Origin: Oxynema aestuarii AP17
GTDB lineage: Bacteria; Cyanobacteriota; Cyanobacteriia; Cyanobacteriales; Laspinemataceae
Direction: 5' to 3'
DNA length: 64,000 nucleotides
Assembly (NCBI RefSeq): GCF_012295525.1
Contig: NZ_CP051167.1
Coordinates: forward strand, 5,621,299-5,685,298
Shown here piece after piece: positions 1,238 through 53,635 of this stretch (position 1 is the first letter of the stretch; every line of letters starts with the position of its first letter). A model generated the notes under the pieces. That model saw nothing but the letters and a program-made list of their open reading frames with translations. It ran no database searches and was not told the DNA's origin. A program made the translations under genes and the position numbers.

Positions 1238-2359
1238 TAGCAGTCCTAAATGATTCATGGAAGCTTTTTTTGTTATAATATACACGGAAGATTCTCAATA
1301 TCAGACAGACCTCATGAATATCATAGACGAGCTAGATAATTTCATTGAAAATACCACAAATACCAAAGAAATGAAGAGAGCATTGGCAGCCAAAATGAAA
1401 TTATCTGGTCAACCCTCTAAGAAAATTGAAGAAATATTAAATGTTTCTTCGAGCTTCGTTAGTCAATGGAAAAATAAAGCAATTTTTGAGGGTGTTGAGA
1501 GTTTGAATCTTCAATACAAAGGAAGTAAAGGCTATCTAAAACCGGAAGAAAAAACACAAATCACTTCATGGATAAGACAACAAGAGTATTTGAGATTGTC
1601 TGACTTAAAACGATATTTGCAGCAAGAATACAACGTGATTTATTCTTCAAATCAAAGTTATTATGACTTGCTGAAAGCGGCTGGCATGAGCTGGAAAAAG
1701 TCGCAAAAAAAGAATCCAGCCAAAGATGAAAAGCTAGTCAAAAAAAAAGAAGAAGAAATTCAAAAGAAGCTTAAGGACTGGGAAGAGGATATCAAAGCTG
1801 GAAAGCTTGCTGTGTTTATGATTGATGAATGTCATCTTCTTTGGGGAGACGTCTTGGGTTTTGTTTGGGGAAGAAAAGATATAAGAGTCGAAATTCCCAT
1901 TAAAAACCAAAAAAGTCGCCAAAGTTATTATGGCGCTTTAGATTACCAAACTCATGAATTTATTCTTCAAGAATACCCGAAAGCCGATACCGACAATACC
2001 ATTCAGTTTATACAATACTTACGAGAACAAAGACCGGGACAAAAATTAGCCATTTTTTGGGATGGTGCCAGGTATCACGACTCTCAACAATTTCGAGATT
2101 TTTTAAAAGAGCTAAATGAAGGCTTAGAAGAAGATGAATGGTTGATTACTTGTACGAAGTTTGCTCCGAATGCTCCCGAGCAAAATCCAGTTGAAGATAT
2201 TTGGCTGCAAACTAAAAATTTCTTGAGAACATTTTATTTTTTATGTGATTCATTTAAAAGAGTTAAAGAGCTATTCAAGATATTTGCTGATGGCCAAGTT
2301 TTTGATTTCCCTAAGCTATATTCTTATGGATTTTTGCCACAAATGACTTAGGATTGCTA
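1238..2359 (+). mobile_element. IS630/Tc1-mariner-family insertion sequence, copy 1 (1122 bp). Its termini are TAGCAGTCCTAAATGATTCAT … ATGACTTAGGATTGCTA, and it is flanked by a TA target duplication (1236-1237 and 2360-2361).
   Basis: It has imperfect terminal inverted repeats. The three copies in the window are 100 % identical. It is AT-rich compared with the flanking DNA. Confidence 0.85.
1257..2351 (+). CDS. IS630-family DDE transposase (364 aa) with an N-terminal HTH. The candidate catalytic residues are D(FMIDECH), D(FWDGARYHD) and E(NPVEDIW).
   Basis: The identical ORF is present three times. It has the Tc1/IS630-like DDE pattern, and TA target duplications flank each element. Confidence 0.8.
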   Translation: MEAFFVIIYTEDSQYQTDLMNIIDELDNFIENTTNTKEMKRALAAKMKLSGQPSKKIEEILNVSSSFVSQWKNKAIFEGVESLNLQYKGSKGYLKPEEKTQITSWIRQQEYLRLSDLKRYLQQEYNVIYSSNQSYYDLLKAAGMSWKKSQKKNPAKDEKLVKKKEEEIQKKLKDWEEDIKAGKLAVFMIDECHLLWGDVLGFVWGRKDIRVEIPIKNQKSRQSYYGALDYQTHEFILQEYPKADTDNTIQFIQYLREQRPGQKLAIFWDGARYHDSQQFRDFLKELNEGLEEDEWLITCTKFAPNAPEQNPVEDIWLQTKNFLRTFYFLCDSFKRVKELFKIFADGQVFDFPKLYSYGFLPQMT

Positions 2360-5054
2360 TAGTTATCCGCATAAGTCACATTGTCCCACACTACCACTTC
2401 CGGATCGAGGACAGTGCTGAAAACGGGTTCTGGAAAAGTCGGGTCGTAATCATACGGATCGATTGTAGTCATTTGGAGGTCGCGATTAGAAGCGTTGGTT
2501 CCCCCAGCATTCGGAAAATACGTCCCCAACCGCTGAATCATTTCCGTATTGACAACCGCACCTTGACCCAATCCAATAAAATGCAATGGCGAGTTAAAAA
2601 TATCTCCTTGGGTACGGATAAGATTGCCATTAGCATCATAAAGACCAGACCCCTCTCCAACTTTACCACCATATTGTTGGTCGAGTTTCACCAAGGAAGC
2701 AAACATTGAATCAGCCGCAGCTTCTGCAAAACCTCCGTTATAGAAACTGCTGGCATCGAGACCCTGCATCCAATCGGCTAACAATACCAGTGGTTTTTCT
2801 TCTATAGGTGTTGTGTTAGTCGCTACCCAACTATTCCCGTTTAAGGTGACAGATTGCCATCCCCCAGTGGAGGGATTGTATTTCATCACCGAACCGCCTG
2901 CTTCTTGAATTTTACTGGCAAGAGCATTAATTTGACTGTTAAGCAAGCGGTTATGTTCTTCATCATTCTGTGGTTCTACACCGCGAGTCAATACCGTCAC
3001 ACTCGTAAACGGACTGGATGAAGGACTTGGCGGTAAGGGAGTTTTAAACTGACTATCCTCAACAACCGGCGTCGGTGAGCCATTAATCACCGCTTCAACC
3101 GCCCAATAATACTCTTGGCCCGCCGTCAACATCCGGTCATCAGGCAGTGTAAATTGGTCTTTAGCACCCGCTTGAGAACCCCCATTCCAAGTCCACACCC
3201 CCTCTTTCCAAGTCGCCGTCAAAATGCGATTCGGATTGTAATCCCTTCCTGGAGTGGGTGAGTCTAATTCCGGCCAAATATCCCTTGGTAACAACCCCTC
3301 CCCTTCAGGAAACACACTTACATAAAGCCTCACCTCTTTTACATCATCCTCGTCAACAGGAGTTGCACAAACATCCGTCTCATCACCCTCCCCATTAAAA
3401 TTCCACTTAAACGTCGGCGTCAAAGTCTCCTCATCAAACACCCCAATCGGATTTTGCAGATTGACAATCGGTCGAGAAGACGCCGTTGCCACACTAAACG
3501 GACTTCCTCCCCCCAAAGAAATCGGCCCGGTGTGAGAATTATTAGGAACTCCATAAGGAATCTTCCTCGTAAAAGAATCGATCGCATTCCCAATATCCTT
3601 AAAATCAGCCGCCAGACTAATAGACGGATTGATATCATCAATCGGCTTCTCCTCAAACACCTCCAGTGGCGTACTATTAACCGTCTGGAGCATCTCCTTC
3701 ACATTAAAAACAAAGGTACTATCAATCCCCGGATAACTCGCCGTCAAATACTTATTATCGCTCGAAAGCGACACCCCATTCGTAAATCCATTGGGAATCG
3801 GTCGCGTCGCCGCCACCAAAGTCGGATTGGGTCCCAAAGCATCCTTAATAATCCCAATATTGCCACCGGCTTTCGAGCCATCCACACTCTCGATTCCACT
3901 GCCAATCATTCGACCATTACGACCTGCAACAAAAGCATAATCCGTGCCACTTTCCTCATCATACATCACCGCCACAGACACCGCTTCATTGACATCAAAA
4001 TAATCGGTCAAACCGCCTAAAGTTAACTGAGCGTAATGAGTAACCGCCTCAAAACTTAGCGGGTCATTATTGAGAATAGTCAGCACACCATACCCTTTTG
4101 GCTCCTCACCCCGGCTAGTAAACACCATCTTCGTAGGGTCGTAAGTAGCCGCCAGTCCTTCCACTCCATAACCCCCTTCAACCCGACCAATTTGTTGATG
4201 CCATTTGCGAGTATTTTGATTGGGGTCAGCCGGATTGTCAGGCCGATCGCGAGGGTCAATATTAAACACTAAAATTTGTCCCCGTCCCGTATCAGACCCC
4301 CCTGGAGTTGTAGCGAACAACCGCGTCCCATCACTGCTCATCGCCAGTTGACGCAAACCCAGACTCGCATTCTCGACTTCAATCGTACCAATGTACTGAT
4401 TGTAAAAATCCGAACTGGGATTGATATCAATAACGTAAATCGCCCCAGTTTTCCAATCCGCCACATAAGCGTATTCATCCCGACTGTCGATCGCAATTGC
4501 ACTGGGAATCGCATGAGAAGGCAAATCAATCCCATTGATTCCTTCCACATTAGGTTGAGCATCCAACTGTTTGAAAGCCGTCAAATCAACGAGAGCCACC
4601 TGTGCCGACTTATTCAGAGTCACATAAGCGCGAGAAGCATTGCTAGTTGCAGCGATAGCTCTCGGTCCATCTTCTCTGTTTGGCGACCCCACAGGAATAT
4701 CCGCTAACAGTAAATCTTTACTATCCGTCTGCGCGATAACTTGTTCCGGATTGAGCGTGTTGACCAGACTAATCGTATCACTTGTCTGACGCGGCACCAT
4801 CGCCATTTCCACACAACCATCAATCGGTATTTTGACCCGTTCCGTTTCCGTTTCCGTTTGAGTATCTATCACTGAATGAGTCGTTCTTTTCAGAGAAACC
4901 TCCGCTTCAGCCAGCGGAACAAAATCCGTCGTTACCGCAATTCGTTCTTGCTCTGGCTGGCTCAAAGGCGCAAGTATAGTACCCGGATAGACTTTACCTC
5001 CCAGGTGGAAATTTACCTCCAAATCATCGAGATTCGTTCCGAAATTACGACCTT

Positions 5055-8000
5055 CTAAATACAACACTCGTCCTTGTTGTTCGTCATACTGAAGTTGGAG
5101 CCGTTCCAGAACGGGTTGAGTATCGGGTACGGGTTGAGTTGGCACATCAAGCACAAGTTCAAGCTCACATTCAGTTCCGTCGTATATGGCAGTCCTACAG
5201 TGGGAATAGTCAATGTAGTCACACTTCTTTCCGACGCATCAAGCAAAACCGGAACTGAAGCCAAAGCCAATGCTCCCGCACCTATTAAACCACCGGGGAC
5301 AAAGTAATCTGGACGGGAATAAGTCAAAGGTGATAGTTTCGGATAGGCTAGTGCTATTCCCCCTACGGCAATCAACCCCAAACCGACGCCAGCACTAAAT
5401 CCGGCCAACCTTAAATGCGCTACAGAATAATCAAATTTGGGAATGGCAATGCTATATTCCCCCGATTCATAAGCACCCCGCCACGGAGGAGAAGTCGTAT
5501 AAATCATCCCATCATCGCCGACAATTCCCGATTCCACCATCGTCCAGATCGGGTGCATCGTCTCACTTCCGACCCATTTATCTCCTTGTTGGAGTGCTGG
5601 GAGTTCCCCTTTGCGAAGGAAAAACACTTCCGTGCCAGGTTCCACCCCAGCAGGTGCCGGAATTGCGAATTGCAACGGGAATTCTAACGGTTGTTCACCA
5701 ATATCTAAGTTAAAGGAGCCAGCGAAGGAGAATTTCTCTGGAATCTCCAAGGAAAGGTTCGATTCCTCAATTTGTCCAATACTGACTGGGGTTTCCTCTG
5801 TTAATGCTCCAGGCGGAACCATCACCATCGCGCCATCATCGGAACGTACTGCACCCCCATTCACTCCAATTGATGCTGTACCGGAAATGGGTTCAACCAC
5901 CCGCACTTCAATCGTTTCCTCTGCTGCACCATGAACCACTGTCACCGTCGCATATCCGGATGACAATGCTGTTATCTTTCCATCTTCAGAAATTCGTACC
6001 ACATTCTCATCGCTGACGTAATAGCGAGTTCCGCTTGCTGCAGCGCTCAAATCGGGAGAATCGCTGAGGGAATTTAACCGTAATTGTAATTGGCGTTTAG
6101 CTCCCGGAACTAAAGTGATAGCATCCGGATAGGGGTCAATTCCTTCAAATTCTGCCAGTGCGACATTAAACTCCGCATCGTTAGTTGGTGTGGGAGTCGC
6201 TCCAATACGAATTGCCGTTACTGCTTCTTCATCCCTGTAAGAGACTCGCACTACGGCGACGCCTTCAGCATTTTTAGCTGTTATCGTTCCATCGCTTTCA
6301 ACGGTTACTAAATCGGGATTGTCAGTGCTGTAGGTTAGTTCGCTGGCGGGGATAACCACCCCTTTGCGATCGGCAAAATTGGCAGTGACGACTAAATTTG
6401 TCGTGCCATCCGATCGCAACTGCACATCGCGCTCCACCACGTCTAAACTCAATAATGGTGCATCGCTAACTTTTACAGTTATGGTCTCATTTACCGACCG
6501 AACGCCGCCATCGTTGGCAACTAAATCGAAACTGGCCGTTCCGACAAAATCCGGAGCCGGTTGGAAAGAAAGAGTTGTGCCATCAGCGAGCAATTCTGCG
6601 GTTCCATTGAGTGCATTGCTGATGTGGTAGGTCACTCGATCGCCATCGGGGTCGGTGACTAACGAGGATAAGTCAATGGTGGCGGGTAAATTAGCACTCA
6701 CCAGAACTGAATCGTTGATGAGAATGGGTGCTTGGTTGGTCAATAAATCCGTGCCATCTTGGAGCAATAATTGCAAGCGACCGTTTTCGTCATAGAAGGC
6801 ATTCGCTCCACTGCGTCCTAATGGATCGAGTACCGAAGTTAAGTAATGGTCGAATGATTGATGGTAATCGAAATGGGTGGTGACGTTATCGCGATCGGTG
6901 ACAGCGACCAAATCACCTTTTTCGTCATATTGATAGCGAATGACTTGGTTATTGAAATCGGTGACGGTATTGATGCGACCTTTAGCATCGCGACCCAATG
7001 CGATCGCTTCTCCGGTGGAACTGAATATTCCAGCGTCAGAGAAGGTTAAGGAATAACCATCGGCGTCAGTAACTTTAAGTAAATCTCCACTTTTTGCATC
7101 AATTTCGGCGACAACTCCTTCTGGAGTGGTCAGGGTGTACTGACCGCCAAATCGTGAATTCTCTGGGTTATAAGGAACGCCTGCTAGGTCATAATAGTTA
7201 CCATCTGGACCTAATATTAGGCGGGTGTCTGGTACGGAAAGGGTCATTCCCGAACCGTTATCAGCAACGAAGGTGGGATGATACCAACGTGCAGCTCCAT
7301 CACCGTACAAACTGAGGAAAGAATTCAGGCGATCGCCGGTGGGTTCAAAGCGGAAGTCGATTCGTTCTCCATCGGGAAGGGTAACGTAAACGCGAGTGTC
7401 GTCAGTGAAGGCATTTTGAATGTCGAGTAATTCTTGCTCGAAACTGGGGGGAGGCACATTGGTTCGCAAGTCGGTATCGACTAATTCCATGCGCCATCCG
7501 TATCCAAAATCATCGGAATCTTCGGCGTTTAAGCTGTCATAAGTCCGAGTCAAAATGATGGGGAAACCTGTAATGGGAATTTCTACTAGATCGTTGAAAG
7601 AAAGGTTGAGGTTGCCTTGTTTTTCTCCACCCACTTCTATCCGCTCTTCTATTGTGGAACCATTGCCTCCTTTATCGTAAGCAGACAAGCGCAATACATA
7701 ACTATCGTTCTGCAAAATTGACGGATCGAAGGTTCCCAACACTCCATCCACAACCGATTCTGTTCCTCGGAAAATTTCTCGGAACTCGCTACTGCCTCCG
7801 GCTGCTACTTCTAGGGTATAATAATCCAAATTTTCATCTTCAACTGTCCCTACAATTTCCAGGGATGCAGTCACTGTTTCATCAAACAGACCCTCTGCTA
7901 ATGCTACCACTGGAGAATCGGGGTCTGAACTATCGATTGCGGTAATTTCTAAGGTGGATTCTGTGACGTTAAAAGCCGCATCATAAGCAACTGCTCGAAC

Positions 8001-10382
8001 CTTAATGTTACCAAATTCCTCTATTTTAATTTTAGCCGTCCCCAACCCGGATAGTTCTACGGGTTCATCATTAATAAAGAGTTGCATTCCGGTAATGCCG
8101 ACATTATCAGTTGCTTGAAGGAAGAAGGTGATTTCCGAGCCGATATCGGCACGATAATCATCATCGACAAGGTACACATTACTCGGCAAGAGTTGAATTT
8201 GGGGTGCTACATTATCTGCTGTAACTGTTAGATTGAAAGTTTGAGTGGCGGTAGTTCCCAACTCATCGATCGCTTCAATAGTTATCGCATGAGTTCCGAC
8301 ATTTTCAACCGTAGGAATCCAACGCAACCGTCCCAACTCATCTACACTCATTCCCAAAGCAATGGAAGCATCATCTAAGCGATAGGTTAAACTGCTACCA
8401 TTCGGGTCGGTTGCTTGAATGTCGTAACTGAACAGGCGATTTGGAATTGCGACAGTAGGCGGTTCATTCGTATTAAAAACGGGAGGTAAATCATTTTGAA
8501 CCGTTAAAGTAAATCCTTGTGCTGCACCCAAACGACCATCATTCACTCCCACCACAACTTGATGAGTGCCAAAAGTAGGAGAATCCCAACGCAGTTCGCC
8601 AGTATTGACATCCAAAGTCATCCCATTGGGAACCGAGATGGGTTGATAAATTAAACCATCATTATCTGCATCAGTTGCTTCAATTTGATAGCGGTAAGGT
8701 ACGCCAGTGGCGGCGAAATATTTGGCGGTGGAGGTAATGACGGGTGGATGGTTAATGGCATCTGACCCGACTTCTATGGTGTAGGTTTGTCGGTTCACTC
8801 CATTTTGGCCGTCAATAACTAACACTTCCACTTCTACCGAACCCGACTGTTGTGCGGTTGGCGTCCAAGTAATCAATCCAGTTTCCGGGTCGATTTGCAT
8901 CCCATCGGGTGCAATTCCCAAACTGTAGCGTCCTCCATCATTTTCGAGGTCAGTGGAAGCGATTTGATAGCGATAATCAGTTCCGACAGCGGCGGCGGTG
9001 ATGGGGACAGAAACAATTTCTGGGGGAGTGTTGATTCCTCGAACTGTGAGGTCAAATTCTTGACCCACAAAATGTCCGGTTGCATCAGTGACGCGAATGG
9101 CAATCGTATGTTCGCCGATTTGGGTGGCGTTGGGTTGCCAAGATAGCATTCCGGAGTTGGGGTCAATAACCATTCCAGAAGGTGCTTTATCTAAAGTCCA
9201 TAACAGCAAATCGCCATCGGGGTCGAATCCAACAAGTTGATATTGATAAACCCGTTCTAAGTTGGTAATTAGATTTGGGGTGGAGGTGATGCTAGGTGCG
9301 CGATTGACAGTTTGATTCGATACATTTAACGTCCAGGATAAAGTGGTAGTATCTTCGCCGTCGTTAACTTCTAGAGAGATAGGATGGGAACCGAATTGAG
9401 AGGGAGTTGGCGTCCAAATGATGCGACCCTGAGAATCCAATTCCATTCCGGCGGGGGATTGAAGGAAGTTGAAGGTTAGGGGGTCGCCATCAGAATCCGT
9501 CAGCGGTAACTGATATAAATAAGTGGAACCGATGCGAACCGAACTGCGGGGGGTGGCGGTAATTTCTGGGGGGGTATTCGGACGCGGTTCGACTACAGTG
9601 GCGGTAATCGTTTGAGATGCTTCTCCACCGAGACTATCAATTGCTTTAACGGTGAATTGAAACTCGCCGGTTTGGGAGGGAGTCCAACGCAGAATGCCAG
9701 TGTCGGGATTGAGGGTAGCGCCAGTTGGGGGATTGACTAACTCGTAACGAATCTCAGCATCGCCATCCGCATCGAGTGCATTGAGACGATATTCAAATAG
9801 TTTACCGCGTTGAGGTTGAATGAATGTGGGTGAAGAGTTGGTAAATGCGGGGAGATTGTTGACAGGTGTCAACTTGACTTGGAACGATTGTAAATCGACT
9901 CCACCTAAATTATCTTGCACTCGCACTAAAACATTATAAACCCCCGAAGCAAGGTAAATACTGTTTGATTCACTCCGTTGGATTACAGTAGGTTTCCAAA
10001 CAATAACTCCAGTTTCGGAATCGATTGTCATTCCCTCTGGTTTTAACGGTAAATCATAAACTAAATTATCAGCATTGGGATCCTTTGCTATAGCGTTATA
10101 CCGAAAGAAACTTGACTCAAAAATCTCAGTGGGCGGAGTGCTGGTGAAACTAGGAGGTAGGTTAGAAGGGGGGTTCTCACGTTCGCCATTGCCAAAGTTG
10201 ATATTTTCTACAACTTGACCCGATTCTAATTTAACTGTATGAGCACGCTCTAATCCAAGAATCTGAGTGACTTTAATGTTATCAATTACCGCTCCATAAC
10301 TATCTCCTACTGTAGAATAAAACTCAATTGTTGTATTGTTACTGTTAGCAGTAAACTGCCAAGTTTGGGGTTGATACTGCAT
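5055..10382 (-). CDS. Giant cell-surface protein fragment (1775 aa). The N-terminal 40 aa are the 3' part of a DUF642 domain. This is followed by about 8-10 cadherin-like/He_PIG Ig repeats, a Big_2 domain, and a Gly/Ala-rich hydrophobic C-terminal region. It is the downstream half of a gene split by the MITE and IS copy 2.
   Basis: The repeats follow the pattern PP.I.S.P…Y.Y.…A.D.D.D.L.Y.L…P.GM.ID..TG.I.W.P. The N-terminus …QTWQFTANSNNTTIEFYSTVGDSYGAVIDNIKV is the conserved C-terminal end of DUF642. Confidence 0.7.
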   Translation of the reverse strand: MQYQPQTWQFTANSNNTTIEFYSTVGDSYGAVIDNIKVTQILGLERAHTVKLESGQVVENINFGNGERENPPSNLPPSFTSTPPTEIFESSFFRYNAIAKDPNADNLVYDLPLKPEGMTIDSETGVIVWKPTVIQRSESNSIYLASGVYNVLVRVQDNLGGVDLQSFQVKLTPVNNLPAFTNSSPTFIQPQRGKLFEYRLNALDADGDAEIRYELVNPPTGATLNPDTGILRWTPSQTGEFQFTVKAIDSLGGEASQTITATVVEPRPNTPPEITATPRSSVRIGSTYLYQLPLTDSDGDPLTFNFLQSPAGMELDSQGRIIWTPTPSQFGSHPISLEVNDGEDTTTLSWTLNVSNQTVNRAPSITSTPNLITNLERVYQYQLVGFDPDGDLLLWTLDKAPSGMVIDPNSGMLSWQPNATQIGEHTIAIRVTDATGHFVGQEFDLTVRGINTPPEIVSVPITAAAVGTDYRYQIASTDLENDGGRYSLGIAPDGMQIDPETGLITWTPTAQQSGSVEVEVLVIDGQNGVNRQTYTIEVGSDAINHPPVITSTAKYFAATGVPYRYQIEATDADNDGLIYQPISVPNGMTLDVNTGELRWDSPTFGTHQVVVGVNDGRLGAAQGFTLTVQNDLPPVFNTNEPPTVAIPNRLFSYDIQATDPNGSSLTYRLDDASIALGMSVDELGRLRWIPTVENVGTHAITIEAIDELGTTATQTFNLTVTADNVAPQIQLLPSNVYLVDDDYRADIGSEITFFLQATDNVGITGMQLFINDEPVELSGLGTAKIKIEEFGNIKVRAVAYDAAFNVTESTLEITAIDSSDPDSPVVALAEGLFDETVTASLEIVGTVEDENLDYYTLEVAAGGSSEFREIFRGTESVVDGVLGTFDPSILQNDSYVLRLSAYDKGGNGSTIEERIEVGGEKQGNLNLSFNDLVEIPITGFPIILTRTYDSLNAEDSDDFGYGWRMELVDTDLRTNVPPPSFEQELLDIQNAFTDDTRVYVTLPDGERIDFRFEPTGDRLNSFLSLYGDGAARWYHPTFVADNGSGMTLSVPDTRLILGPDGNYYDLAGVPYNPENSRFGGQYTLTTPEGVVAEIDAKSGDLLKVTDADGYSLTFSDAGIFSSTGEAIALGRDAKGRINTVTDFNNQVIRYQYDEKGDLVAVTDRDNVTTHFDYHQSFDHYLTSVLDPLGRSGANAFYDENGRLQLLLQDGTDLLTNQAPILINDSVLVSANLPATIDLSSLVTDPDGDRVTYHISNALNGTAELLADGTTLSFQPAPDFVGTASFDLVANDGGVRSVNETITVKVSDAPLLSLDVVERDVQLRSDGTTNLVVTANFADRKGVVIPASELTYSTDNPDLVTVESDGTITAKNAEGVAVVRVSYRDEEAVTAIRIGATPTPTNDAEFNVALAEFEGIDPYPDAITLVPGAKRQLQLRLNSLSDSPDLSAAASGTRYYVSDENVVRISEDGKITALSSGYATVTVVHGAAEETIEVRVVEPISGTASIGVNGGAVRSDDGAMVMVPPGALTEETPVSIGQIEESNLSLEIPEKFSFAGSFNLDIGEQPLEFPLQFAIPAPAGVEPGTEVFFLRKGELPALQQGDKWVGSETMHPIWTMVESGIVGDDGMIYTTSPPWRGAYESGEYSIAIPKFDYSVAHLRLAGFSAGVGLGLIAVGGIALAYPKLSPLTYSRPDYFVPGGLIGAGALALASVPVLLDASERSVTTLTIPTVGLPYTTELNVSLNLCLMCQLNPYPILNPFWNGSNFSMTNNKDECCI

Positions 10383-10386
10383 ATTA

Positions 10387-10487
10387 TAGCATTCCTAAAT
10401 CAGTCGAGTCAGGGCGATCCACCTGAAACCCCTGGGAGTGGGAGCATCTTGCTCCCTACATAGGTTACAAATCATTTAGGATTGCTA
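10387..10487. mobile_element. 101-bp MITE derived from the IS630-family element. It has the same termini (TAGCATTCCTAAAT…ATTTAGGATTGCTA) and is flanked by TA. It shares the TA at 10488-10489 with IS copy 2.
   Basis: Its ends match the IS terminal repeats at 12-13 of 15 positions. The internal about 70 bp are unrelated to the IS interior. A third TA lies at 10385-10386. Confidence 0.7.
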
Positions 10488-10489
10488 TA

Positions 10490-11611
10490 TAGCAGTCCTA
10501 AATGATTCATGGAAGCTTTTTTTGTTATAATATACACGGAAGATTCTCAATATCAGACAGACCTCATGAATATCATAGACGAGCTAGATAATTTCATTGA
10601 AAATACCACAAATACCAAAGAAATGAAGAGAGCATTGGCAGCCAAAATGAAATTATCTGGTCAACCCTCTAAGAAAATTGAAGAAATATTAAATGTTTCT
10701 TCGAGCTTCGTTAGTCAATGGAAAAATAAAGCAATTTTTGAGGGTGTTGAGAGTTTGAATCTTCAATACAAAGGAAGTAAAGGCTATCTAAAACCGGAAG
10801 AAAAAACACAAATCACTTCATGGATAAGACAACAAGAGTATTTGAGATTGTCTGACTTAAAACGATATTTGCAGCAAGAATACAACGTGATTTATTCTTC
10901 AAATCAAAGTTATTATGACTTGCTGAAAGCGGCTGGCATGAGCTGGAAAAAGTCGCAAAAAAAGAATCCAGCCAAAGATGAAAAGCTAGTCAAAAAAAAA
11001 GAAGAAGAAATTCAAAAGAAGCTTAAGGACTGGGAAGAGGATATCAAAGCTGGAAAGCTTGCTGTGTTTATGATTGATGAATGTCATCTTCTTTGGGGAG
11101 ACGTCTTGGGTTTTGTTTGGGGAAGAAAAGATATAAGAGTCGAAATTCCCATTAAAAACCAAAAAAGTCGCCAAAGTTATTATGGCGCTTTAGATTACCA
11201 AACTCATGAATTTATTCTTCAAGAATACCCGAAAGCCGATACCGACAATACCATTCAGTTTATACAATACTTACGAGAACAAAGACCGGGACAAAAATTA
11301 GCCATTTTTTGGGATGGTGCCAGGTATCACGACTCTCAACAATTTCGAGATTTTTTAAAAGAGCTAAATGAAGGCTTAGAAGAAGATGAATGGTTGATTA
11401 CTTGTACGAAGTTTGCTCCGAATGCTCCCGAGCAAAATCCAGTTGAAGATATTTGGCTGCAAACTAAAAATTTCTTGAGAACATTTTATTTTTTATGTGA
11501 TTCATTTAAAAGAGTTAAAGAGCTATTCAAGATATTTGCTGATGGCCAAGTTTTTGATTTCCCTAAGCTATATTCTTATGGATTTTTGCCACAAATGACT
11601 TAGGATTGCTA
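10490..11611 (+). mobile_element. IS630-family insertion sequence, copy 2, identical to copy 1. It is inserted in tandem with the MITE inside a DUF642 domain of the giant gene.
   Basis: The sequence is identical to copy 1, with TA at 10488-10489 and 11612-11613. Confidence 0.85.
10509..11603 (+). CDS. IS630-family transposase (copy 2).
   Basis: The 364-aa ORF is identical to the copy-1 transposase. Confidence 0.8.
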   Translation: MEAFFVIIYTEDSQYQTDLMNIIDELDNFIENTTNTKEMKRALAAKMKLSGQPSKKIEEILNVSSSFVSQWKNKAIFEGVESLNLQYKGSKGYLKPEEKTQITSWIRQQEYLRLSDLKRYLQQEYNVIYSSNQSYYDLLKAAGMSWKKSQKKNPAKDEKLVKKKEEEIQKKLKDWEEDIKAGKLAVFMIDECHLLWGDVLGFVWGRKDIRVEIPIKNQKSRQSYYGALDYQTHEFILQEYPKADTDNTIQFIQYLREQRPGQKLAIFWDGARYHDSQQFRDFLKELNEGLEEDEWLITCTKFAPNAPEQNPVEDIWLQTKNFLRTFYFLCDSFKRVKELFKIFADGQVFDFPKLYSYGFLPQMT

Positions 11612-14600
11612 TATTTTTATTGCCACTACCAATCCCTACAAATTCTGCCGACTGACCAGCTGCGGTTACAGTCATTGGTCTTTCGCTTCCTGCAGCAAGA
11701 AAACCATGAGCTGATAAGTCAAAAGTTACGAGGTAATCTTCGCCAGGAATAGTGTTAATCGTTTGTTTAATTCCCCCCGGACCTGGTGTACCATCAAGGT
11801 CAATACTATAATCACCATCAGAGGCTTGCCATAAACCTGTACCACAATGATCGACCGACCTCAGCATCACGTCCCAGCCTTCAAGTGTAGTCGAATTATA
11901 TCTTACTATTGTCCATGAATTTTTCGGGGCTGGTCCTCTTTCAAAACTCCCATTCTGAATTAAGTTTTCACCGATCGCCGGACTTAATAAAGGAAAGGTT
12001 TGTTCTAAACTAGAGGGAACTATTTCTCGAATCGTATAGGTATCCGCTGTCAAATTGGTAAATTGATAGGAGCCGGTTTCGTCTGTTAAAGGAGTGGCGG
12101 GATTATCTGTACTTGTTTTTGTGCTTGGTTCCTCAACATCTAACCTTCCATTATTATTCAAATCTAAATAAATTTCTACTCCAGCTAGTCCACTTTCTTC
12201 TGGGTCGAAAACACTGTTTTTATTAGAATCTAACCATTTAATTCCGCGAATTTCCCCTAAATCCGTCTGGTGGGCAACACTCAATTGAAAAATCTGAGTA
12301 TCAATTCCACCCTGAGTATCTTGCACCTCAACCGCAATCTCATATTCTCCCACATTGTCATCGGTTAAGTCGTTCCAACGAATTTCTCCAGTAATTGGGT
12401 CAACCGTCATTCCATCGGGAGGATTCACCAAGGAATAAGTCAGTTGGTCGTTTTCAGGGTCGAGCGCTCGGACTGAATAAAGATAATCGCTCCCCACATT
12501 GACTCGTTGTGAGGGTTCGCTAATAATAATTGGTGCGTAGTTCCCAGGCTTTTCTTGGATTAAAATATTGAAGGATTGCGTTACTTTTCCACCCCTGCCA
12601 TCTTCGGCATTCAGCGTTACTTTCTGTAAGCCTAGTTGTTGGGTATTGGGTTGCCAAGTTAAGGTTTGAGTTTCGGAATCAAAACTCATTCCTTCGGGCG
12701 CATTCATAACAGAAAAAGTCAGTTTATCCCTATCTGGGTCAGTAGCACTAATTTGATAGCGATACGGTTGATTGATATAAGCATCCACCACCGGCGTGGA
12801 CGTGAATATAGGGGGTCGATTCGGCGGAATTTCCGTCACTGACAGGGTAAAGCTTTGAACGTCTTTCCCCCCACGAGAATCCACTACCTCTACAACAACA
12901 GCATGAGTTCCAATCTCCTCAACCGTCGTCTCCCAAGTTATCACCCCAGTTTCTGAGTCAATTATCATCCCATTGGGAGCTGATAATAACGAATAACTCA
13001 ACCCATCATTATTCGCATCTTTGGCAATAACTTCATACCGATAAGAATTCCCTCCAATCGCTTCTAGTGGCGGTTTGCTTTCGATAACCGGGTCAGCATT
13101 TAACTGTCCAAGTACCGCCAATTCATAAGTAAATTGAACTCGATTGGGGTTGAAGAAGGTTAGCGAACCCAACTCAGTTATTTCAGTCGGGTCTAACTTT
13201 CCATCCTCGGCCAATTCAGAGAAATTATAATACGGCACTCCTTCTGGGGTAAATCCATCTGGGTTGCGCAGTAAAACTGTGGGGTCACTGATATTAGAAA
13301 CCGCCACCAATAAAGGCCCATCTACGCTATAATTGCCTTCATTGCGAATGGCAACTTCCGCATACAGTTCGTTGCTACTTTCATCAAAGCGGGTGCTTCT
13401 GTATTCTAAGGGGTTTGAAGGCGTAATATCAGTCAGCTTGCCAAACTCGGCTAACTCAATCGGCTGACTGCGATGATTGTCTTCACCGCTACTGACTGGC
13501 GGTTGTTGCTGAGTGCTTCCCACCAAGTTCAGGTTGCGGATGCTGACTGAGGTAGTCGTGTCGCGATCGCCATTCACCAATCGCAATACTAAATTAGCAC
13601 TTCCCGGACTCACCCCATTCAAATTGAGCGTCACCGTACCCGTACTTTCATTATATTCAACGCCAGCGGCTAATTTCGGTTCTTCCCCTTCGGTTAAATT
13701 AAAGAAAGCATCTCCCGAACCAATGGTATGCACCAAAGAATTCCCTTCTGCATCCAAAAGAGCGACTTCAAACGCATCGTTAATTGCATTACTATCGCTC
13801 CTGTCGAAATTGAGTGCAGCCAATGTAAAGACTAACTGAGAAGAAGTCTGTGGAATAGTCAATTCTTCTCGATGACTGACTGAAAAGTTTTCCCCTTCTA
13901 CCAAAACGATATCATCAACATTGCTAACTTCTGTGCGAGTAATGATGCGACTGGTAACGGTGGAATTGCCTGCGTCGTCAAGGGTTTGAATGGTAAAGGA
14001 ATTTTCCCCAACAGTAAGGTCAATTCCTGCAAAAGAGAATTGTCCCGTTGTATCCGCCGTGACGGTTGTGCCGGTTTCGATTAAAGTGACGGTAGCATTG
14101 GGTTCTGTCGTCCCTGTCAGGGTTACAGGTGATGCAGCGGTTTGAGCGTCGCCAGGGATATCGGTGTCGGATGCGGGGTCTAAGTCAAATGTCAGCGGAG
14201 GCGCGGTGGTATCTAGGGTAAAGTCATACTGGTACTCGGTAATGTTTCCCCATTCGTCAATGGCCTGCAAGTATAATGTGTGAGAGCCATCGGGGAGTGA
14301 ATCGCCGTAAATGGTGGCAAGTTGGGAAGGGGTGAGGGTAAAGTCGCCGGTTTCTAAAAGTTGCGAGTCAATGTTGATGAAGGAAGAGTTGTCAAAACTG
14401 GCAGTAAAACTAACAATGTGGAGAGGGTTGGTGAGAGTGCCAGTAATAGTCGGGTTGTAGGTTTTGCGATCGCTATCGGATATGCCAGTATCTTCTGCAA
14501 GTTTTGCGGTGATGATGGGAGACTGGTTGTTCTGTTCTGCGTAAGAAACGATTTGCTGTCCAATTTCAGAATTGCGCCAATCTGAATCGGGAGCAATCAC

Positions 14601-15146
14601 TTCATCCAGGTTAGTCACGATTCCGGTTGCAGCTGACATTTTGAAGGTGATATCGTTAAAGTCGGCATCCCCTCCAGGCAACCGTAAATCTTCCCAGGCA
14701 AATAAGTTCCCATCTCCAGTGACATCAACGAGTTGAGGTTGATGCAACGCTCGTTCCGGGTCACTGGGAGTTAACGAAAGGAAGGGTTTTTTGCTGCCAG
14801 TAACTTGCGGATTGTCAAAGAGTTCTTGGAGGGTGCCGTCAGGAATTAAAATTAAGCCAAATTCTGTTCCTTCCGGTAAAGAGAAAGTTTTCTCTCCTGA
14901 TTTGATGCCACGATTCCAATTGTAAGCTTCCAATTTTCCATCGAGTTTAGCCGCTTCTGTGGAGTCGGATATCAGAACATAACCTTCGTCGGAATTGGAG
15001 AGAGAACGTCTAGCGATTTCTTGGAAGAATTCAGCAGACCCCCATTCATATTCCGAGAGTCCAGCCATATTGAACAAACCGACAGTGCCTTGATAATAGC
15101 CGCCATCGAAGATGTATTCGATGTTAATAGAGCCAGTTTCTCCCAC
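11568..15146 (-). CDS. Giant cell-surface protein, upstream half (annotated from GTG at 15146). It contains a DUF4114 domain, He_PIG/cadherin-like Ig repeats, an SdrD-B-like domain, and the N-terminal two-thirds of a DUF642 domain that is truncated by IS copy 2. The last 8 codons come from the IS end. The same frame stays open upstream to about 16304 with no canonical start codon, across an acidic S/T/E/D repeat region.
   Basis: The DUF4114 motif is …DGGYYQGTVGLF…DLRLPGGDADFNDITF. SdrD-B is …GIKWLDSNKNSVFDPEESGLAGVEIYLD. DUF642 is LIQNGSFERGP…DYSIDLDG…YLVTFDLSAHG. By manual translation I found no stop in frame from 15147 to about 16304. Confidence 0.7.
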   Translation of the reverse strand: MGETGSINIEYIFDGGYYQGTVGLFNMAGLSEYEWGSAEFFQEIARRSLSNSDEGYVLISDSTEAAKLDGKLEAYNWNRGIKSGEKTFSLPEGTEFGLILIPDGTLQELFDNPQVTGSKKPFLSLTPSDPERALHQPQLVDVTGDGNLFAWEDLRLPGGDADFNDITFKMSAATGIVTNLDEVIAPDSDWRNSEIGQQIVSYAEQNNQSPIITAKLAEDTGISDSDRKTYNPTITGTLTNPLHIVSFTASFDNSSFINIDSQLLETGDFTLTPSQLATIYGDSLPDGSHTLYLQAIDEWGNITEYQYDFTLDTTAPPLTFDLDPASDTDIPGDAQTAASPVTLTGTTEPNATVTLIETGTTVTADTTGQFSFAGIDLTVGENSFTIQTLDDAGNSTVTSRIITRTEVSNVDDIVLVEGENFSVSHREELTIPQTSSQLVFTLAALNFDRSDSNAINDAFEVALLDAEGNSLVHTIGSGDAFFNLTEGEEPKLAAGVEYNESTGTVTLNLNGVSPGSANLVLRLVNGDRDTTTSVSIRNLNLVGSTQQQPPVSSGEDNHRSQPIELAEFGKLTDITPSNPLEYRSTRFDESSNELYAEVAIRNEGNYSVDGPLLVAVSNISDPTVLLRNPDGFTPEGVPYYNFSELAEDGKLDPTEITELGSLTFFNPNRVQFTYELAVLGQLNADPVIESKPPLEAIGGNSYRYEVIAKDANNDGLSYSLLSAPNGMIIDSETGVITWETTVEEIGTHAVVVEVVDSRGGKDVQSFTLSVTEIPPNRPPIFTSTPVVDAYINQPYRYQISATDPDRDKLTFSVMNAPEGMSFDSETQTLTWQPNTQQLGLQKVTLNAEDGRGGKVTQSFNILIQEKPGNYAPIIISEPSQRVNVGSDYLYSVRALDPENDQLTYSLVNPPDGMTVDPITGEIRWNDLTDDNVGEYEIAVEVQDTQGGIDTQIFQLSVAHQTDLGEIRGIKWLDSNKNSVFDPEESGLAGVEIYLDLNNNGRLDVEEPSTKTSTDNPATPLTDETGSYQFTNLTADTYTIREIVPSSLEQTFPLLSPAIGENLIQNGSFERGPAPKNSWTIVRYNSTTLEGWDVMLRSVDHCGTGLWQASDGDYSIDLDGTPGPGGIKQTINTIPGEDYLVTFDLSAHGFLAAGSERPMTVTAAGQSAEFVGIGSGNKNIAILSHLWQKSIRI

Positions 15147-18733: not shown

Positions 18734-19855
18734 TAGCAGTCCTAAATGATTCATGGAAGCTTTTTTTGTTATAATATACACGGAAGATTCTCAATATCAG
18801 ACAGACCTCATGAATATCATAGACGAGCTAGATAATTTCATTGAAAATACCACAAATACCAAAGAAATGAAGAGAGCATTGGCAGCCAAAATGAAATTAT
18901 CTGGTCAACCCTCTAAGAAAATTGAAGAAATATTAAATGTTTCTTCGAGCTTCGTTAGTCAATGGAAAAATAAAGCAATTTTTGAGGGTGTTGAGAGTTT
19001 GAATCTTCAATACAAAGGAAGTAAAGGCTATCTAAAACCGGAAGAAAAAACACAAATCACTTCATGGATAAGACAACAAGAGTATTTGAGATTGTCTGAC
19101 TTAAAACGATATTTGCAGCAAGAATACAACGTGATTTATTCTTCAAATCAAAGTTATTATGACTTGCTGAAAGCGGCTGGCATGAGCTGGAAAAAGTCGC
19201 AAAAAAAGAATCCAGCCAAAGATGAAAAGCTAGTCAAAAAAAAAGAAGAAGAAATTCAAAAGAAGCTTAAGGACTGGGAAGAGGATATCAAAGCTGGAAA
19301 GCTTGCTGTGTTTATGATTGATGAATGTCATCTTCTTTGGGGAGACGTCTTGGGTTTTGTTTGGGGAAGAAAAGATATAAGAGTCGAAATTCCCATTAAA
19401 AACCAAAAAAGTCGCCAAAGTTATTATGGCGCTTTAGATTACCAAACTCATGAATTTATTCTTCAAGAATACCCGAAAGCCGATACCGACAATACCATTC
19501 AGTTTATACAATACTTACGAGAACAAAGACCGGGACAAAAATTAGCCATTTTTTGGGATGGTGCCAGGTATCACGACTCTCAACAATTTCGAGATTTTTT
19601 AAAAGAGCTAAATGAAGGCTTAGAAGAAGATGAATGGTTGATTACTTGTACGAAGTTTGCTCCGAATGCTCCCGAGCAAAATCCAGTTGAAGATATTTGG
19701 CTGCAAACTAAAAATTTCTTGAGAACATTTTATTTTTTATGTGATTCATTTAAAAGAGTTAAAGAGCTATTCAAGATATTTGCTGATGGCCAAGTTTTTG
19801 ATTTCCCTAAGCTATATTCTTATGGATTTTTGCCACAAATGACTTAGGATTGCTA
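18734..19855 (+). mobile_element. IS630-family insertion sequence, copy 3, identical to copies 1 and 2, with TA duplications at 18732-18733 and 19856-19857. It is inserted in non-coding DNA.
   Basis: The sequence is identical to the other copies. Confidence 0.85.
18753..19847 (+). CDS. IS630-family transposase (copy 3).
   Basis: The 364-aa ORF is identical to the other two transposases. Confidence 0.8.
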   Translation: MEAFFVIIYTEDSQYQTDLMNIIDELDNFIENTTNTKEMKRALAAKMKLSGQPSKKIEEILNVSSSFVSQWKNKAIFEGVESLNLQYKGSKGYLKPEEKTQITSWIRQQEYLRLSDLKRYLQQEYNVIYSSNQSYYDLLKAAGMSWKKSQKKNPAKDEKLVKKKEEEIQKKLKDWEEDIKAGKLAVFMIDECHLLWGDVLGFVWGRKDIRVEIPIKNQKSRQSYYGALDYQTHEFILQEYPKADTDNTIQFIQYLREQRPGQKLAIFWDGARYHDSQQFRDFLKELNEGLEEDEWLITCTKFAPNAPEQNPVEDIWLQTKNFLRTFYFLCDSFKRVKELFKIFADGQVFDFPKLYSYGFLPQMT

Positions 19856-19912
19856 TATAGCGACATTAATCTGTCAACGGCGACAAATAATGTGGCAACC
19901 GATACGATCGCT

Positions 19913-19998
19913 AACCTGCCTTTCGTTGGCAGTTTAGGGATTGAGGCAGGCGATCGCCAACCTGCCTTTCGTTGGCAGTTTAGGGATTGAGGCAGGCG
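19913..19998. repeat. 2 × 46-bp perfect tandem duplication (AACCTGCCTTTCGTTGGCAGTTTAGGGATTGAGGCAGGCG), each unit bounded by HIP1-like GATCGC.
   Basis: Read directly. The two units are adjacent with no spacer, so this is not a CRISPR array. Confidence 0.7.
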
Positions 19999-25874: not shown

Positions 25875-26104
25875 TACAGCACTCGGGCATCTTAGTGAGG
25901 TACAGTGCCGATCCCCTTCTATCCCCCCAACCCCCCTTTGAAAGGGGGGCGAAGGAGGGTTAGGGGGGAACGAGGAAAGTAGGGGTTTGGTAATCCAACC
26001 CCTACCTGGCGAGGGGGATTTAGGCGGATCTAGAGGAAAGTCCCCCTTTTTAAGGGGGATTTAGGGGGATCTAAATGTTTTGCATAGCAGAGGAAAATGC
26101 TATA
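25875..26104. repeat. Copy A of a dispersed MITE-like repeat. Its terminus is TACAGCACTCGGG…, its interior has G/C palindromes, and its conserved 3' module is GTCCCCCTTTTTAAGGGGGATTTAGGGGGATCTAAATGTTTTGCATAGCAGAGGAAAATGCT.
   Basis: Three copies occur in the window (also at 42881 and 53435). The ends form short inverted repeats (CTACAGCA…TGCTGTAG). Confidence 0.65.
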
Positions 26105-42880: not shown

Positions 42881-43015
42881 TACAGCACTCGGGCGTCTGA
42901 TGAGGGGGATTGCGGGGGGAACGAGCAAAGTCCCCCTTTTTAAGGGGGATTTAGGGGGATTTAGGAGGATTTAGGGGGATCTAAATGTCTTGCATAGCAG
43001 AGGAAAATGCTGTAG
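42881..43015. repeat. Copy B of the dispersed MITE-like repeat (135 bp). It begins TACAGCACTCGGG and ends …AAAATGCTGTAG.
   Basis: It shares the 5' and 3' modules with copies A and C. Confidence 0.65.
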
Positions 43016-43939: not shown

Positions 43940-46552
43940 TTACAACCAATTCCCTACCAAAACATACGGCCCCCAATAAATCGGGTGTTGATATTCGGGA
44001 ATCTTCAATAAATTAATTTGAGCTTGTCGTAACGCTTCGGCTTTGGTCAGGGTAGAACGGTTCAGTTGGCGGTAAAATTCGACCATTAAAGGAGCGGTAG
44101 CGGCATCGTCGATATACCATAAAGTAGCGAGGGTACTGCGCGCCCCGGCTTTAATGGCAATTCCTGCCAAACCGAGGGCGGCGCGACTGTCGCCACTGGC
44201 GGTTTCACAAGCGCTGAGAACGAGTAATTCGATCGCCTCGTCGCTGCTGCTAGTGCGTTCGCGAACCCGCAATAAGTTATCGAATTCGTTGACATTAATG
44301 CGCTCGTCCCAAGCAAGAATAAATGTATCTTCGGCTTGAGAACTAAATTGACCGTGAGTGGCAATATGGACGATTTCAAAAGGAGTTTTGAGGAGACTTT
44401 CTCGCAGTTGAGACCGGGTAAAGTTTTCGTTGAGTAAGAGAAGTCCGGGTAGGGTTTGATGGATTTCCCGGATTTCGGTTTTGACGTAAGGAAGGGCGGA
44501 AAACCCCGATCGCGCTTCGCTGATTCCGGCGGTGAGGGCTTTTAAGTTCGACTGTTTTAAAGGATTGGGTTTGAGAATTTGCAAGCCGGGAGTGAGGGCG
44601 ATCGCGTAATTTTCGATCAGGAACTGTTCGCCGTCGTAGAGGGTTGACATGGGAATGTTGCGAAACAAGCCGTCGGGGACGAATACGAGGGTTTGAACGT
44701 CGGCGGCGGCGAGCTCGGCGGCGATCGGTTCGATCAGCCATTGATACACTTGATTGCCGTATTGTAAGTAATTAAAAGAGCTACGTTTGACTAAACTTTG
44801 ACGCAGTCGGATCAGGGTTTGTTCGACTTCAGATTTAGCAACGGCGTGGCTGAAGTGACGCAAAGGTTGCCCGGGAAGGGAGACAATCGTATGCAGGCGG
44901 TTTTCTAAAATCAGGGGATAAAAAATACTGGCGTGGGGGTCTACGCGATCGATTTCCACGGGTTGGGTGTCGAGACAAGCATCGCGAAAGAAGTTGTCGA
45001 GTTCGGCAAGTTGGAGGGCTTCGACGACTTTGAGGGCCTGACGCAGACGATCTTGAGTGGGTTGACGATCGCCCTCACCTTGTAGCAAAATGCCGAGGAG
45101 TTCGCGGTAAACGGGTTCGACGCGATCGCGGAAGGAAAACTGCACTTCGCGATTGACGGTGACCAAATCGTAACGAATGGCTTGCAGGGATTTCACCGCT
45201 TCGCTGTAGGCGACGATCGCCCGTTCCCGGTCGTCATGGGCGATCGCGAGGCGTCCGAGTTGCCACTGCCAGCGATAGGCGATATCGGCGGCATCGATTT
45301 GCTGTGCTAAGAGCAATGCGCGCTCGGTGAGCTGCCTCGCGTCGGCAATTTGACCATTTTGCTCGTAAAGATGGCCGAGGCTGCCTAAAGCGTGGGAGAG
45401 GGCGCGTTTGTCTTGCAGGTGTTCGGCGGTCCGCACGGCGTCGGCGAACAGGCGGGCGATCGCTTCTTGGGGTAGGGGGGTTCGCGTAGGATCTCCAATG
45501 GAGAATCGCCGATCGAACTGTGCCAATTCGCTCAAACTTTGGGCGAAATTAATCTGGGCGTACACTTGAGATCGTCCGGGGTGCAGGCGATCGAGCTGTG
45601 CGGGAAGGCGATCGATCGTTTCGGTCACGATCGCTTGTGCTTGCGCGTCGCCCCCTTCTAACAGGCGAATGGCGATCGCGAGGGCATTAAGATCGGCTTC
45701 GACGGCGACGCGATCGCTGGTGGCGGCGGCGTCTCGGTAAGCCTGCAACGCCGTGGTCAGGTCGTCGTCGGCGCGGGCGGTATTGCCCAAATCGAGCAGG
45801 ATTTGGCCGATGAGATCGCGGCGTTGCTCGCCGGATAATTGTCGGGCGAGGCTCAAACTACTTTGCAAGACTTGGCGCGATCGCTCCAAATCGCCGACCA
45901 AACGCAAAGCATTGCCCAAAGCGCGCAAACTCTCACTTCTCAGGGCGAGGTCCGGTTCGTTACTGAGCCGATGGTGGAGGGCTTCGAGGCGATCGCGCGA
46001 TCGCCGATAAAAGCCCAATCCCTGCAAGGCTTGAGCCAGGGAGATTTCGACGCGATCCGCAGCGAGACGATCGCCCGCTTCGCGGTAGGCGGCGATCGCC
46101 GCTTCCCAGGTGTCCGCAGCGCGTTCGAGTTGTCCCCGGTCGAACTCCAAATGACCGCGCGCGTTGAGCGCTTGCGCCAGAACCCGCCTTCGCGCTTCCG
46201 GGGGGATTTCACCGGAATTGACCAGGCTCAAACTGCGGGCGATCGCCATTTCGGCGCGCTTCCACTCCCCTAATTCCCGCCAGGTCGTCCCTAAATTACT
46301 CAGGGCGATCGCGACGGGGGTCGGATCGCGACGGTCCGCACGCGATCGCGCCGCCTCTTGCCACACTTCCACCGCTTGCTGAAATTGCCCGCGATCGTAA
46401 AATAGCCGTCCCCGTTCGATCCATCCCGGGTTCGCCGGATCCGACGCCGACCCACGGAGACTCAAAGGCCCCGCGATCGCCACCATACAAAGGAATCCGA
46501 GCATTAAAAAGGATTGGAAATCACGGAAAAATAAATGCCGTTTTCTTGCCAC
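43940..46552 (-). CDS. Secreted TPR-repeat + CHAT (caspase-HetF-associated) domain protein.
   Basis: It has a signal peptide and N-terminal TPRs. The C-terminal CHAT His/Cys dyad contexts are …VHIATHGQF… and …LLVLSACETASG…. Confidence 0.7.
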   Translation of the reverse strand: MARKRHLFFRDFQSFLMLGFLCMVAIAGPLSLRGSASDPANPGWIERGRLFYDRGQFQQAVEVWQEAARSRADRRDPTPVAIALSNLGTTWRELGEWKRAEMAIARSLSLVNSGEIPPEARRRVLAQALNARGHLEFDRGQLERAADTWEAAIAAYREAGDRLAADRVEISLAQALQGLGFYRRSRDRLEALHHRLSNEPDLALRSESLRALGNALRLVGDLERSRQVLQSSLSLARQLSGEQRRDLIGQILLDLGNTARADDDLTTALQAYRDAAATSDRVAVEADLNALAIAIRLLEGGDAQAQAIVTETIDRLPAQLDRLHPGRSQVYAQINFAQSLSELAQFDRRFSIGDPTRTPLPQEAIARLFADAVRTAEHLQDKRALSHALGSLGHLYEQNGQIADARQLTERALLLAQQIDAADIAYRWQWQLGRLAIAHDDRERAIVAYSEAVKSLQAIRYDLVTVNREVQFSFRDRVEPVYRELLGILLQGEGDRQPTQDRLRQALKVVEALQLAELDNFFRDACLDTQPVEIDRVDPHASIFYPLILENRLHTIVSLPGQPLRHFSHAVAKSEVEQTLIRLRQSLVKRSSFNYLQYGNQVYQWLIEPIAAELAAADVQTLVFVPDGLFRNIPMSTLYDGEQFLIENYAIALTPGLQILKPNPLKQSNLKALTAGISEARSGFSALPYVKTEIREIHQTLPGLLLLNENFTRSQLRESLLKTPFEIVHIATHGQFSSQAEDTFILAWDERINVNEFDNLLRVRERTSSSDEAIELLVLSACETASGDSRAALGLAGIAIKAGARSTLATLWYIDDAATAPLMVEFYRQLNRSTLTKAEALRQAQINLLKIPEYQHPIYWGPYVLVGNWL

Positions 46553-53434: not shown

Positions 53435-53635
53435 TACAGCACTCGGGTGTCTGATGAGCTACAGTGCCGATCCCCCTATCCCCCCTTCGCCCCCTATCCC
53501 CCCTTCGCCCCCCTTTCAAAGGGGGGTTGGGGGGATGGTTGGGGGGATTTCGGGGGCAACGAGCAAAGTCCCCCTTATCTAAGGGGGATTTAGGGGGATC
53601 TAAATGTTTTGCATAGCAGAGGAAAATGCTGTAAG
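53435..53635. repeat. Copy C of the dispersed MITE-like repeat (201 bp).
   Basis: It shares the termini and the 80-bp 3' module with copies A and B. Confidence 0.65.

Follow-up and report, generated by a model that had tools for sequence, protein, structure and literature searches.

The locus

The window, which is the whole 64-kb stretch of DNA that we analysed, belongs to the genome of Oxynema aestuarii AP17 (CP051167), and its proteins have the accessions QIZ73033-QIZ73063. It contains a MITE of 101 bp, three copies of an IS that we assign to the IS630 family, and a giant minus-strand gene that is split by the MITE and by the second IS copy. The paper announcing the AP17 genome makes no mention of IS elements or MITEs. 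The features are listed below.

1238 to 2359, plus strand: IS copy 1, TA-flanked
5055 to 10384, minus strand: 3' part of the giant gene, with He_PIG/cadherin-like repeats and RHS/YD repeats
10385 to 10386: left TA target-site duplication of the MITE
10387 to 10487, plus strand: the whole MITE, classed as type II and IS630-associated, 101 bp, aligning end to end with 27 relatives of 98-104 bp
10387 to 10406, plus strand: left terminal inverted repeat of the MITE, TAGCATTCCTAAATCAGTCG
10440 to 10456, plus strand: internal palindrome of the MITE, GGGAGCA-TCT-TGCTCCC, conserved across the Microcoleus-type subfamily
10468 to 10487, plus strand: right terminal inverted repeat of the MITE, CAAATCATTTAGGATTGCTA, the same 20-mer as in many Microcoleus-type copies
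10488 to 10489: TA common to the right end of the MITE and the left end of IS copy 2
10490 to 11611, plus strand: IS copy 2, 1122 bp, 100% identical to copies 1 and 3
10566 to 11603, plus strand: transposase gene of IS copy 2, 345 aa (364 aa if the start is at 10509 instead)
11612 to 11613: right TA target-site duplication of IS copy 2
11614 to 15146, minus strand: 5' part of the giant gene, ending in a choice-of-anchor C/DUF642 domain that is split by the insertions
18734 to 19855, plus strand: IS copy 3, flanked by TA, not present in sister strains

Insertion into the giant gene

The minus-strand ORFs on the two sides of the elements run from 11568 to 15146 and from 5055 to 10382. With both elements and all but one of the three TAs taken out of the sequence, a single ORF of 2954 codons was obtained, in which the sole stop codon is the terminal one. 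The restored junction, ...GIGSGNKN|NMQYQPQTWQFTAN..., falls within the choice-of-anchor C/DUF642 domain. A search with the reconstructed junction gave 345 homologues, the best of which, P0016, matched at 66% identity and 100% coverage. P0016, Microcystis proteins and other choice-of-anchor C proteins were collinear over the whole junction, and their invariant M and W residues are in register. The doubt raised in the first-pass annotation of this DNA, that the left end of the MITE might be ordinary flanking sequence, is thus ruled out by the restoration of the ORF and by the collinear homologues. Apart from the insertions, the interrupted 8.9-kb ORF carries no second lesion, which suggests that both the MITE and IS copy 2 were inserted recently in evolutionary terms.

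The resident IS

The transposase, recorded under the name IS630 family transposase, Oxynema aestuarii (QIZ73672.1 and others), matched the Pfam domains DDE_3 (9e-15; 55 bits against a cutoff of 28.6) and HTH_33 (1.7e-11; 44 bits against a cutoff of 25). These domains point to a DDE transposase of the IS630/Tc1-mariner type with an N-terminal HTH, which places the resident IS in the IS630 family as far as sequence can tell. The format of the IS fits this family too, with a length of 1122 bp, one ORF, and termini that match each other at 19 of 25 positions, and all six IS copies that we examined are flanked by TA. IS copy 1 also breaks a coding region, in which the minus-strand ORFs 872-1285 and 2311-5154 are involved; ORF 2311-5154, which has 947 codons, grows to 1067 or more when the copy is removed. 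At 5055-5154, this ORF and the end of the giant gene share 100 nt, read in different frames.

The JGI assembly Ga0573901_01, of 6.31 Mb, represents a sister strain whose identity to the window is 99.9% across positions 41017-19856 and 99.4% across 18737-12727. In this strain the site of IS copy 3 is empty and reads ...TTGATGC-TA-TAGCGAC..., with a single TA (L127:21150-21170 and L129:9670-9690), and an independent Logan contig has the same empty site (L130:80-90). The boundaries of the IS and the duplication of TA are therefore proven directly by comparing filled and empty sites. Elsewhere in the JGI strain, at sites flanked by TA (L122, L123), the identical IS is present with no MITE adjacent. 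Because the IS copies are identical, and because a strain of 99.9% identity has a precise empty site, with one TA, in place of copy 3, we conclude that the resident IS is active or was so very recently, and that it moved after the strains diverged. Two tandem 46-nt units (CGATCGCYAACCTGCCTTTCGTTGGCAGTTTAGGGATTGAGGCAGG) stand just right of IS copy 3, at window 19905-19996, and are also present in the strains that lack the IS there.

The same comparison was of no help for the MITE. No orthologous empty MITE site at high identity was found in the sister strain, where the alignment ends at window 12727, because the giant gene of that strain is unrelated to the window from about position 12727 onward. 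The sister giant gene (5687 aa, with He_PIG and RHS/YD repeats; L129:13815-20324) has only its first ~650 residues in common with that of AP17, at 96% amino acid identity. Beyond these residues, that is, leftwards of window 12648-12727, we found neither DNA nor protein similarity to the window. This amounts to an abrupt replacement of an allele or cassette between strains that are otherwise 99.9% identical.

The window holds another dispersed repeat family as well, rich in GGGGGATTTAGGGGGATCTAAATG motifs and present in 3-4 copies (26001-26104, 42891-43014 and 53529-53633). It lies partly inside a 78-nt inverted pair, 25913-25990 and 53467-53544.

Anatomy of the MITE

The first-pass annotation had described a 101-bp element at 10387-10487 that is flanked by TA on both sides and abuts IS copy 2, with an interior unrelated to the transposase gene. 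Both points hold. A single TA separates the two elements, and a sensitive blastn search of the window with the 101 bp (E<=1e-3) found the element alone, so the interior is unrelated to the IS. The outer ends of the MITE read TAGCATTCCTAAATCAG... and ...CAAATCATTTAGGATTGCTA, and 13 of the 14 outermost nucleotides are complementary between the two ends, showing that terminal inverted repeats are present. As single-stranded DNA, the MITE folds into a 13-bp terminal stem with an inner 7-bp hairpin, at a dG of -17.2 kcal/mol (z -3.2). It is non-coding, since all six frames contain stops and the longest internal ORF has 26 codons. A search of Rfam with the MITE assigned it to no family and returned only sub-threshold chance matches.

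In an alignment of 28 sequences, 90% of the cells of the internal palindrome are paired. The AP17 hairpin differs from the consensus GCGAGCA/TGCTCGC by a two-sided change at the second pair, C-G to G-C. Covariation of the inner hairpin is weak, with two-sided changes in 4 cells only and with some measures alone exceeding those of shuffled alignments. The evidence is not enough for a claim of selection on the hairpin structure.

Termini of the MITE and of the IS

We compared the outermost 17 nt of the MITE with those of the resident IS. The left end of the MITE matches the left and the right IS end at 14/17 positions each, and its right end, read as the reverse complement, matches them at 16/17 and 15/17, respectively. 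The two IS ends match each other at only 14/17, so the MITE ends are as close to the IS ends as the IS ends are among themselves. When up to 3 mismatches are allowed, a 16-mer from the IS end occurs at 8 sites in the 64-kb window against 0.40 expected, a number reached in none of 100 shuffles. Six of the 8 sites are ends of the IS copies, and the other two are the ends of the MITE.

The statement in the first-pass annotation that the MITE has the same terminal repeats as the IS applies to the first ~14 nt, where position 6 is variable; the inner parts of the termini differ. The inner half of the left MITE terminus, CAGTCGAG, is unlike the corresponding IS sequences GATTCATG and CATTTGTG, and positions 15-20 differ from both. 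For this reason, binding of the left terminus by the resident transposase is not guaranteed. Of its 17 outermost nucleotides, the MITE thus has 14-16 in common with an autonomous element, the resident IS.

Identical outer 14 nt also delimit IS630-clade elements in other genomes. One such element, in contig L040, is TA-flanked and has the ends TAGCGATCCTAAATCATT... and ...AAATCATTTAGGATTGCTA, and an IS630-family element on the Nostoc punctiforme plasmid pNPUN02, likewise TA-flanked, has the ends TAGCAATCCTAAATGAGTTGTGAAAA and TAGCAATCCTAAATCATTTGTGAAAA.

Relatives in other cyanobacteria

A blastn search against plasmids revealed a homologue of the MITE in Oscillatoria nigro-viridis PCC 7112 (pOSC7112.03, 45064-45162; L001). 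This copy is 99 bp long, TA-flanked and intergenic, and it has the termini and the internal GAGCATCTTGCTC palindrome in common with the MITE. We then looked for the left terminus of 20 nt, TAGCANTCCTAAATCAGTCG, with position 6 free, in a set of genomes that holds one for each species. The terminus was found at no fewer than 120 loci, nearly all of them cyanobacterial, against about 4 that we estimate to occur by chance. The host taxa among the matches listed include Microcoleus, Tychonema, Phormidium, Limnofasciculus, Nostoc, Calothrix, Leptothermofonsia, Leptolyngbya, Pseudanabaenaceae and others; the terminus spans Oscillatoriales, Nostocales, Leptolyngbyales-like taxa and Pseudanabaenales. 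Two of the matches listed come from non-cyanobacterial bins, one labelled Chloroflexales (L043) and one Oligoflexales (L098).

When the plasmid copy was added to the 120 loci listed, TA stood directly upstream of the terminus at 110 of the 121. Complete short elements number 67 among the matches listed, mostly of 98-112 bp, and 55 of them are flanked by TA left and right. Their insertion sites give the target consensus (A/C)TA(T/G). Several genomes carry many loci: at least 11 in Microcoleus sp. SVA1_B3, at least 17 in Leptothermofonsia ETS-13, at least 15 in Pseudanabaenaceae LEGE 13415 and at least 12 in Pseudanabaenales MAG.87. Between the termini, the cores of ~60 nt (L002-L121) fall into five or more types that are unrelated to one another and that each form a strong hairpin of their own; they include those of Nostoc (GATCCCCGACTTC...GAAGTCGGGGATC), Leptothermofonsia, two Pseudanabaenales and Microcoleus.

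The MITE of AP17 aligns end to end with the Microcoleus-type subfamily, which comprises 27 loci of 98-104 bp among the matches listed, at 71-83% identity. The closest relative among the matches listed, at 83%, is in Phormidium pseudopriestleyi (L108). The MITE is a diverged member of a MITE lineage common to Microcoleus, Phormidium and Oscillatoria. The superfamily to which it belongs is widespread in cyanobacteria, and one clade of IS630-family elements has the termini of this superfamily (TAGCANTCCTAAAT...). As far as the searchable literature shows, the subfamily has no name, and a search of that literature for the terminus strings gave nothing relevant. Two elements have altered hairpins: in L090:2924-3027 the loop of the inner palindrome is inverted (GAGCAAGATGCTC vs GAGCATCTTGCTC) and the stem extended, and in L056 the loop is replaced (GAGCCAGAAAGCTC) and the stem kept.

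Metagenome scans were made with two features of the AP17 copy. The left terminus followed by the AP17-specific AG gave 0 matches, and the AP17-type GGGAGCA/TGCTCCC hairpin combined with the right terminus gave one contig (L126). In that contig (L126:290-362; JAAUYJ010171778.1) the right half of a related element is followed by TA, and no left terminus can be recognised. Neither scan thus yielded a second close copy in other flanking DNA. Within Oxynema, the MITE was found once in ~110 kb of DNA (the 64-kb window, 42 kb in L122 and L123, and 4.6 kb in L129); no copy lies in the 42 kb that come from the sister strain.

We also searched for transposase-carrying elements that end in the exact left terminus, and among the matches listed (at least 120 loci) there was none. 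A tblastn search of the listed loci with the AP17 transposase revealed, in L040, an IS630-like pseudogene at a distance of 1.5 kb from the MITE copy there, a fragment in L036, and nothing else. The long ORFs downstream of unpaired termini we read as host genes (a subtilase, a dehydrogenase and a PhoU-like protein).

Proposed mechanism

Elements of the IS630/Tc1-mariner kind move by a cut-and-paste route: HTH domains of the transposase contact the inverted termini, and the element is excised and joined into a TA. Applied to the MITE, an IS630-type DDE transposase acting in trans would bind both inverted termini, excise the element and paste it into a TA, and the TA would be duplicated on insertion. 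In AP17, the MITE would have entered a TA in the choice-of-anchor C/DUF642 domain of the ~2950-codon surface-protein gene, and the IS would then have used the TA beside it, or the two events may have taken place in the reverse order. Either order would leave a dead gene and the layout TA-MITE-TA-IS-TA, because the second element uses one TA of the duplication made by the first. Abutting elements with a common TA are found elsewhere in the family, in L021, L039 and L062. An IS that came second would have had the target A-TA-T, which agrees with the family consensus better than T-TA-T; this is a weak hint that the IS may have come second.

The MITE is best classed as type II, that is, as an element that borrows IS630-clade termini and did not arise from the resident IS by deletion, because its interior is unlike the IS and the MITEs most similar to it are those of other genera. 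For the enzyme that mobilises it, the resident transposase is an obvious candidate, and mobilisation in trans by this enzyme is plausible. The MITE itself may be active, a view supported indirectly by the lesion-free host ORF and by the IS polymorphism between near-identical strains. Taken together, we consider it highly probable that the locus as a whole is explained by a non-coding MITE with IS630-clade termini that is moved in trans and was inserted beside the IS in the giant gene.

Alternative explanations

The most serious alternative is that the MITE is stranded in AP17: the resident transposase would not recognise its termini, it would last have been moved by another IS630 relative that may be gone, and its position beside the IS would reflect nothing but a common preference for TA. 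The closest relatives of the MITE are indeed MITEs in other genera and not the resident IS, positions 15-20 of its left terminus are unlike both IS ends, the exact 20-nt left terminus was never seen at the end of a transposase-carrying element among the matches listed (at least 120 loci), and ~110 kb of Oxynema DNA holds one copy only. However, the host ORF without secondary lesions points to a recent insertion, the IS is currently mobile, and the right end of the MITE matches the left IS end at 16/17 while the IS ends match each other at 14/17, so the enzyme tolerates divergence of this degree. We regard this explanation as possible but rather unlikely. It is less likely still, and in our opinion improbable, that the MITE and the IS arrived in a single event as one composite unit of 1225 bp, moved by the left terminus of the MITE and the right terminus of the IS. 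The outer TAs (10385-86 and 11612-13) are those that a single composite insertion would make, and abutting pairs with a common TA do recur (L021, L039, L062), but five other identical IS copies (copies 1 and 3, those in L122 and L123, and that of the L124 and L125 contigs) lack an adjacent MITE. Two successive insertions would leave the same sequence as a composite one.

Two further explanations are contradicted by the data. An origin of the MITE as a type I element, a local derivative of the neighbouring IS by internal deletion, would account for the terminal ~14 nt that the two have in common; the interior is unlike the IS, though, and is instead homologous over its full length to ~99-bp elements of other genera, which makes such an origin very improbable. 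That the 101 bp are ordinary host sequence, part of a gene or a spacer with a chance likeness to an IS end, can practically be dismissed. The single local copy is all that speaks for it, whereas the ORF is restored only when the element is removed, homologues are collinear across the junction, and 8 terminus matches were observed in the window, all at element ends, where 0.4 were expected.

Significance

The annotation of AP17 gains a 101-bp feature and a disrupted gene of ~2950 codons, which would otherwise be taken for a spacer and two separate ORFs. AP17 has a currently mobile member of the IS630 family and, judging compatibility from the sequences, a compatible non-autonomous passenger. 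Occupancy of the IS and MITE sites offers cheap markers for Oxynema strains, as one IS site differs between strains that are 99.9% identical. On a wider scale, the superfamily of ~100-bp MITEs with its constant 20-nt end (position 6 free) can serve as a probe for IS630-driven plasticity in filamentous cyanobacteria. One may go further and imagine a modular superfamily that spreads horizontally, in which the terminus is constrained beyond the ends of any single IS and the hairpin cores are selected cargo, for example regulatory or terminator modules; we give this idea little credence at present.

Comparison with known systems

MITEs with IS-like termini and target duplications are well described in cyanobacteria, and thousands have been catalogued in 17 genomes. 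Stowaway-type MITEs of Tc1-mariner elements and the MITEs of bacterial IS630 elements have in common a TA duplication, short borrowed inverted termini and unrelated interiors. The AP17 MITE follows the same logic as the Stowaway type, although its host is a bacterium and the sequences are unrelated. Among cyanobacterial elements, the comparison with Nezha involves ISNpu3 of Nostoc punctiforme, which we take to be a member of the IS630 family. Nezha, from Anabaena variabilis and Nostoc sp. PCC 7120 (Zhou, Tran & Xu 2008), is described as a non-coding element of ~130-170 bp with a stable fold (PMC3184786). According to the same description, its inverted termini and target duplication are common to ISNpu3, it is presumed to be moved in trans, and its recent mobility was argued from empty versus filled sites (PMC3184786). 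Compared on the basis of that description, Nezha and the AP17 MITE are both cyanobacterial non-coding elements with termini of an IS type and a target duplication, whereas the AP17 MITE is shorter, at 101 bp, and has a different core.

In sequence, the IS630-family element of N. punctiforme has the terminal TAGCAATCCTAAAT and the TA flanks of the AP17 MITE. The ~99-bp Microcoleus-type MITEs (in Microcoleus, Tychonema, Limnofasciculus, P. pseudopriestleyi and pOSC7112.03) agree with the AP17 MITE in length, 20-nt termini and TA flanks, and the internal GAGCA-TCT-TGCTC palindrome is present in both. The AP17 MITE is the most divergent when set beside the listed members of this type, with an interior identity of 54-74%. 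Its left terminus is followed by an insertion of 2 nt, and its stem is GGG/CCC in place of GCG/CGC. Knowledge of how such elements work is unchanged by the AP17 MITE. It is a clean but ordinary representative of a kind already known, the Nezha-like IS630 MITEs.
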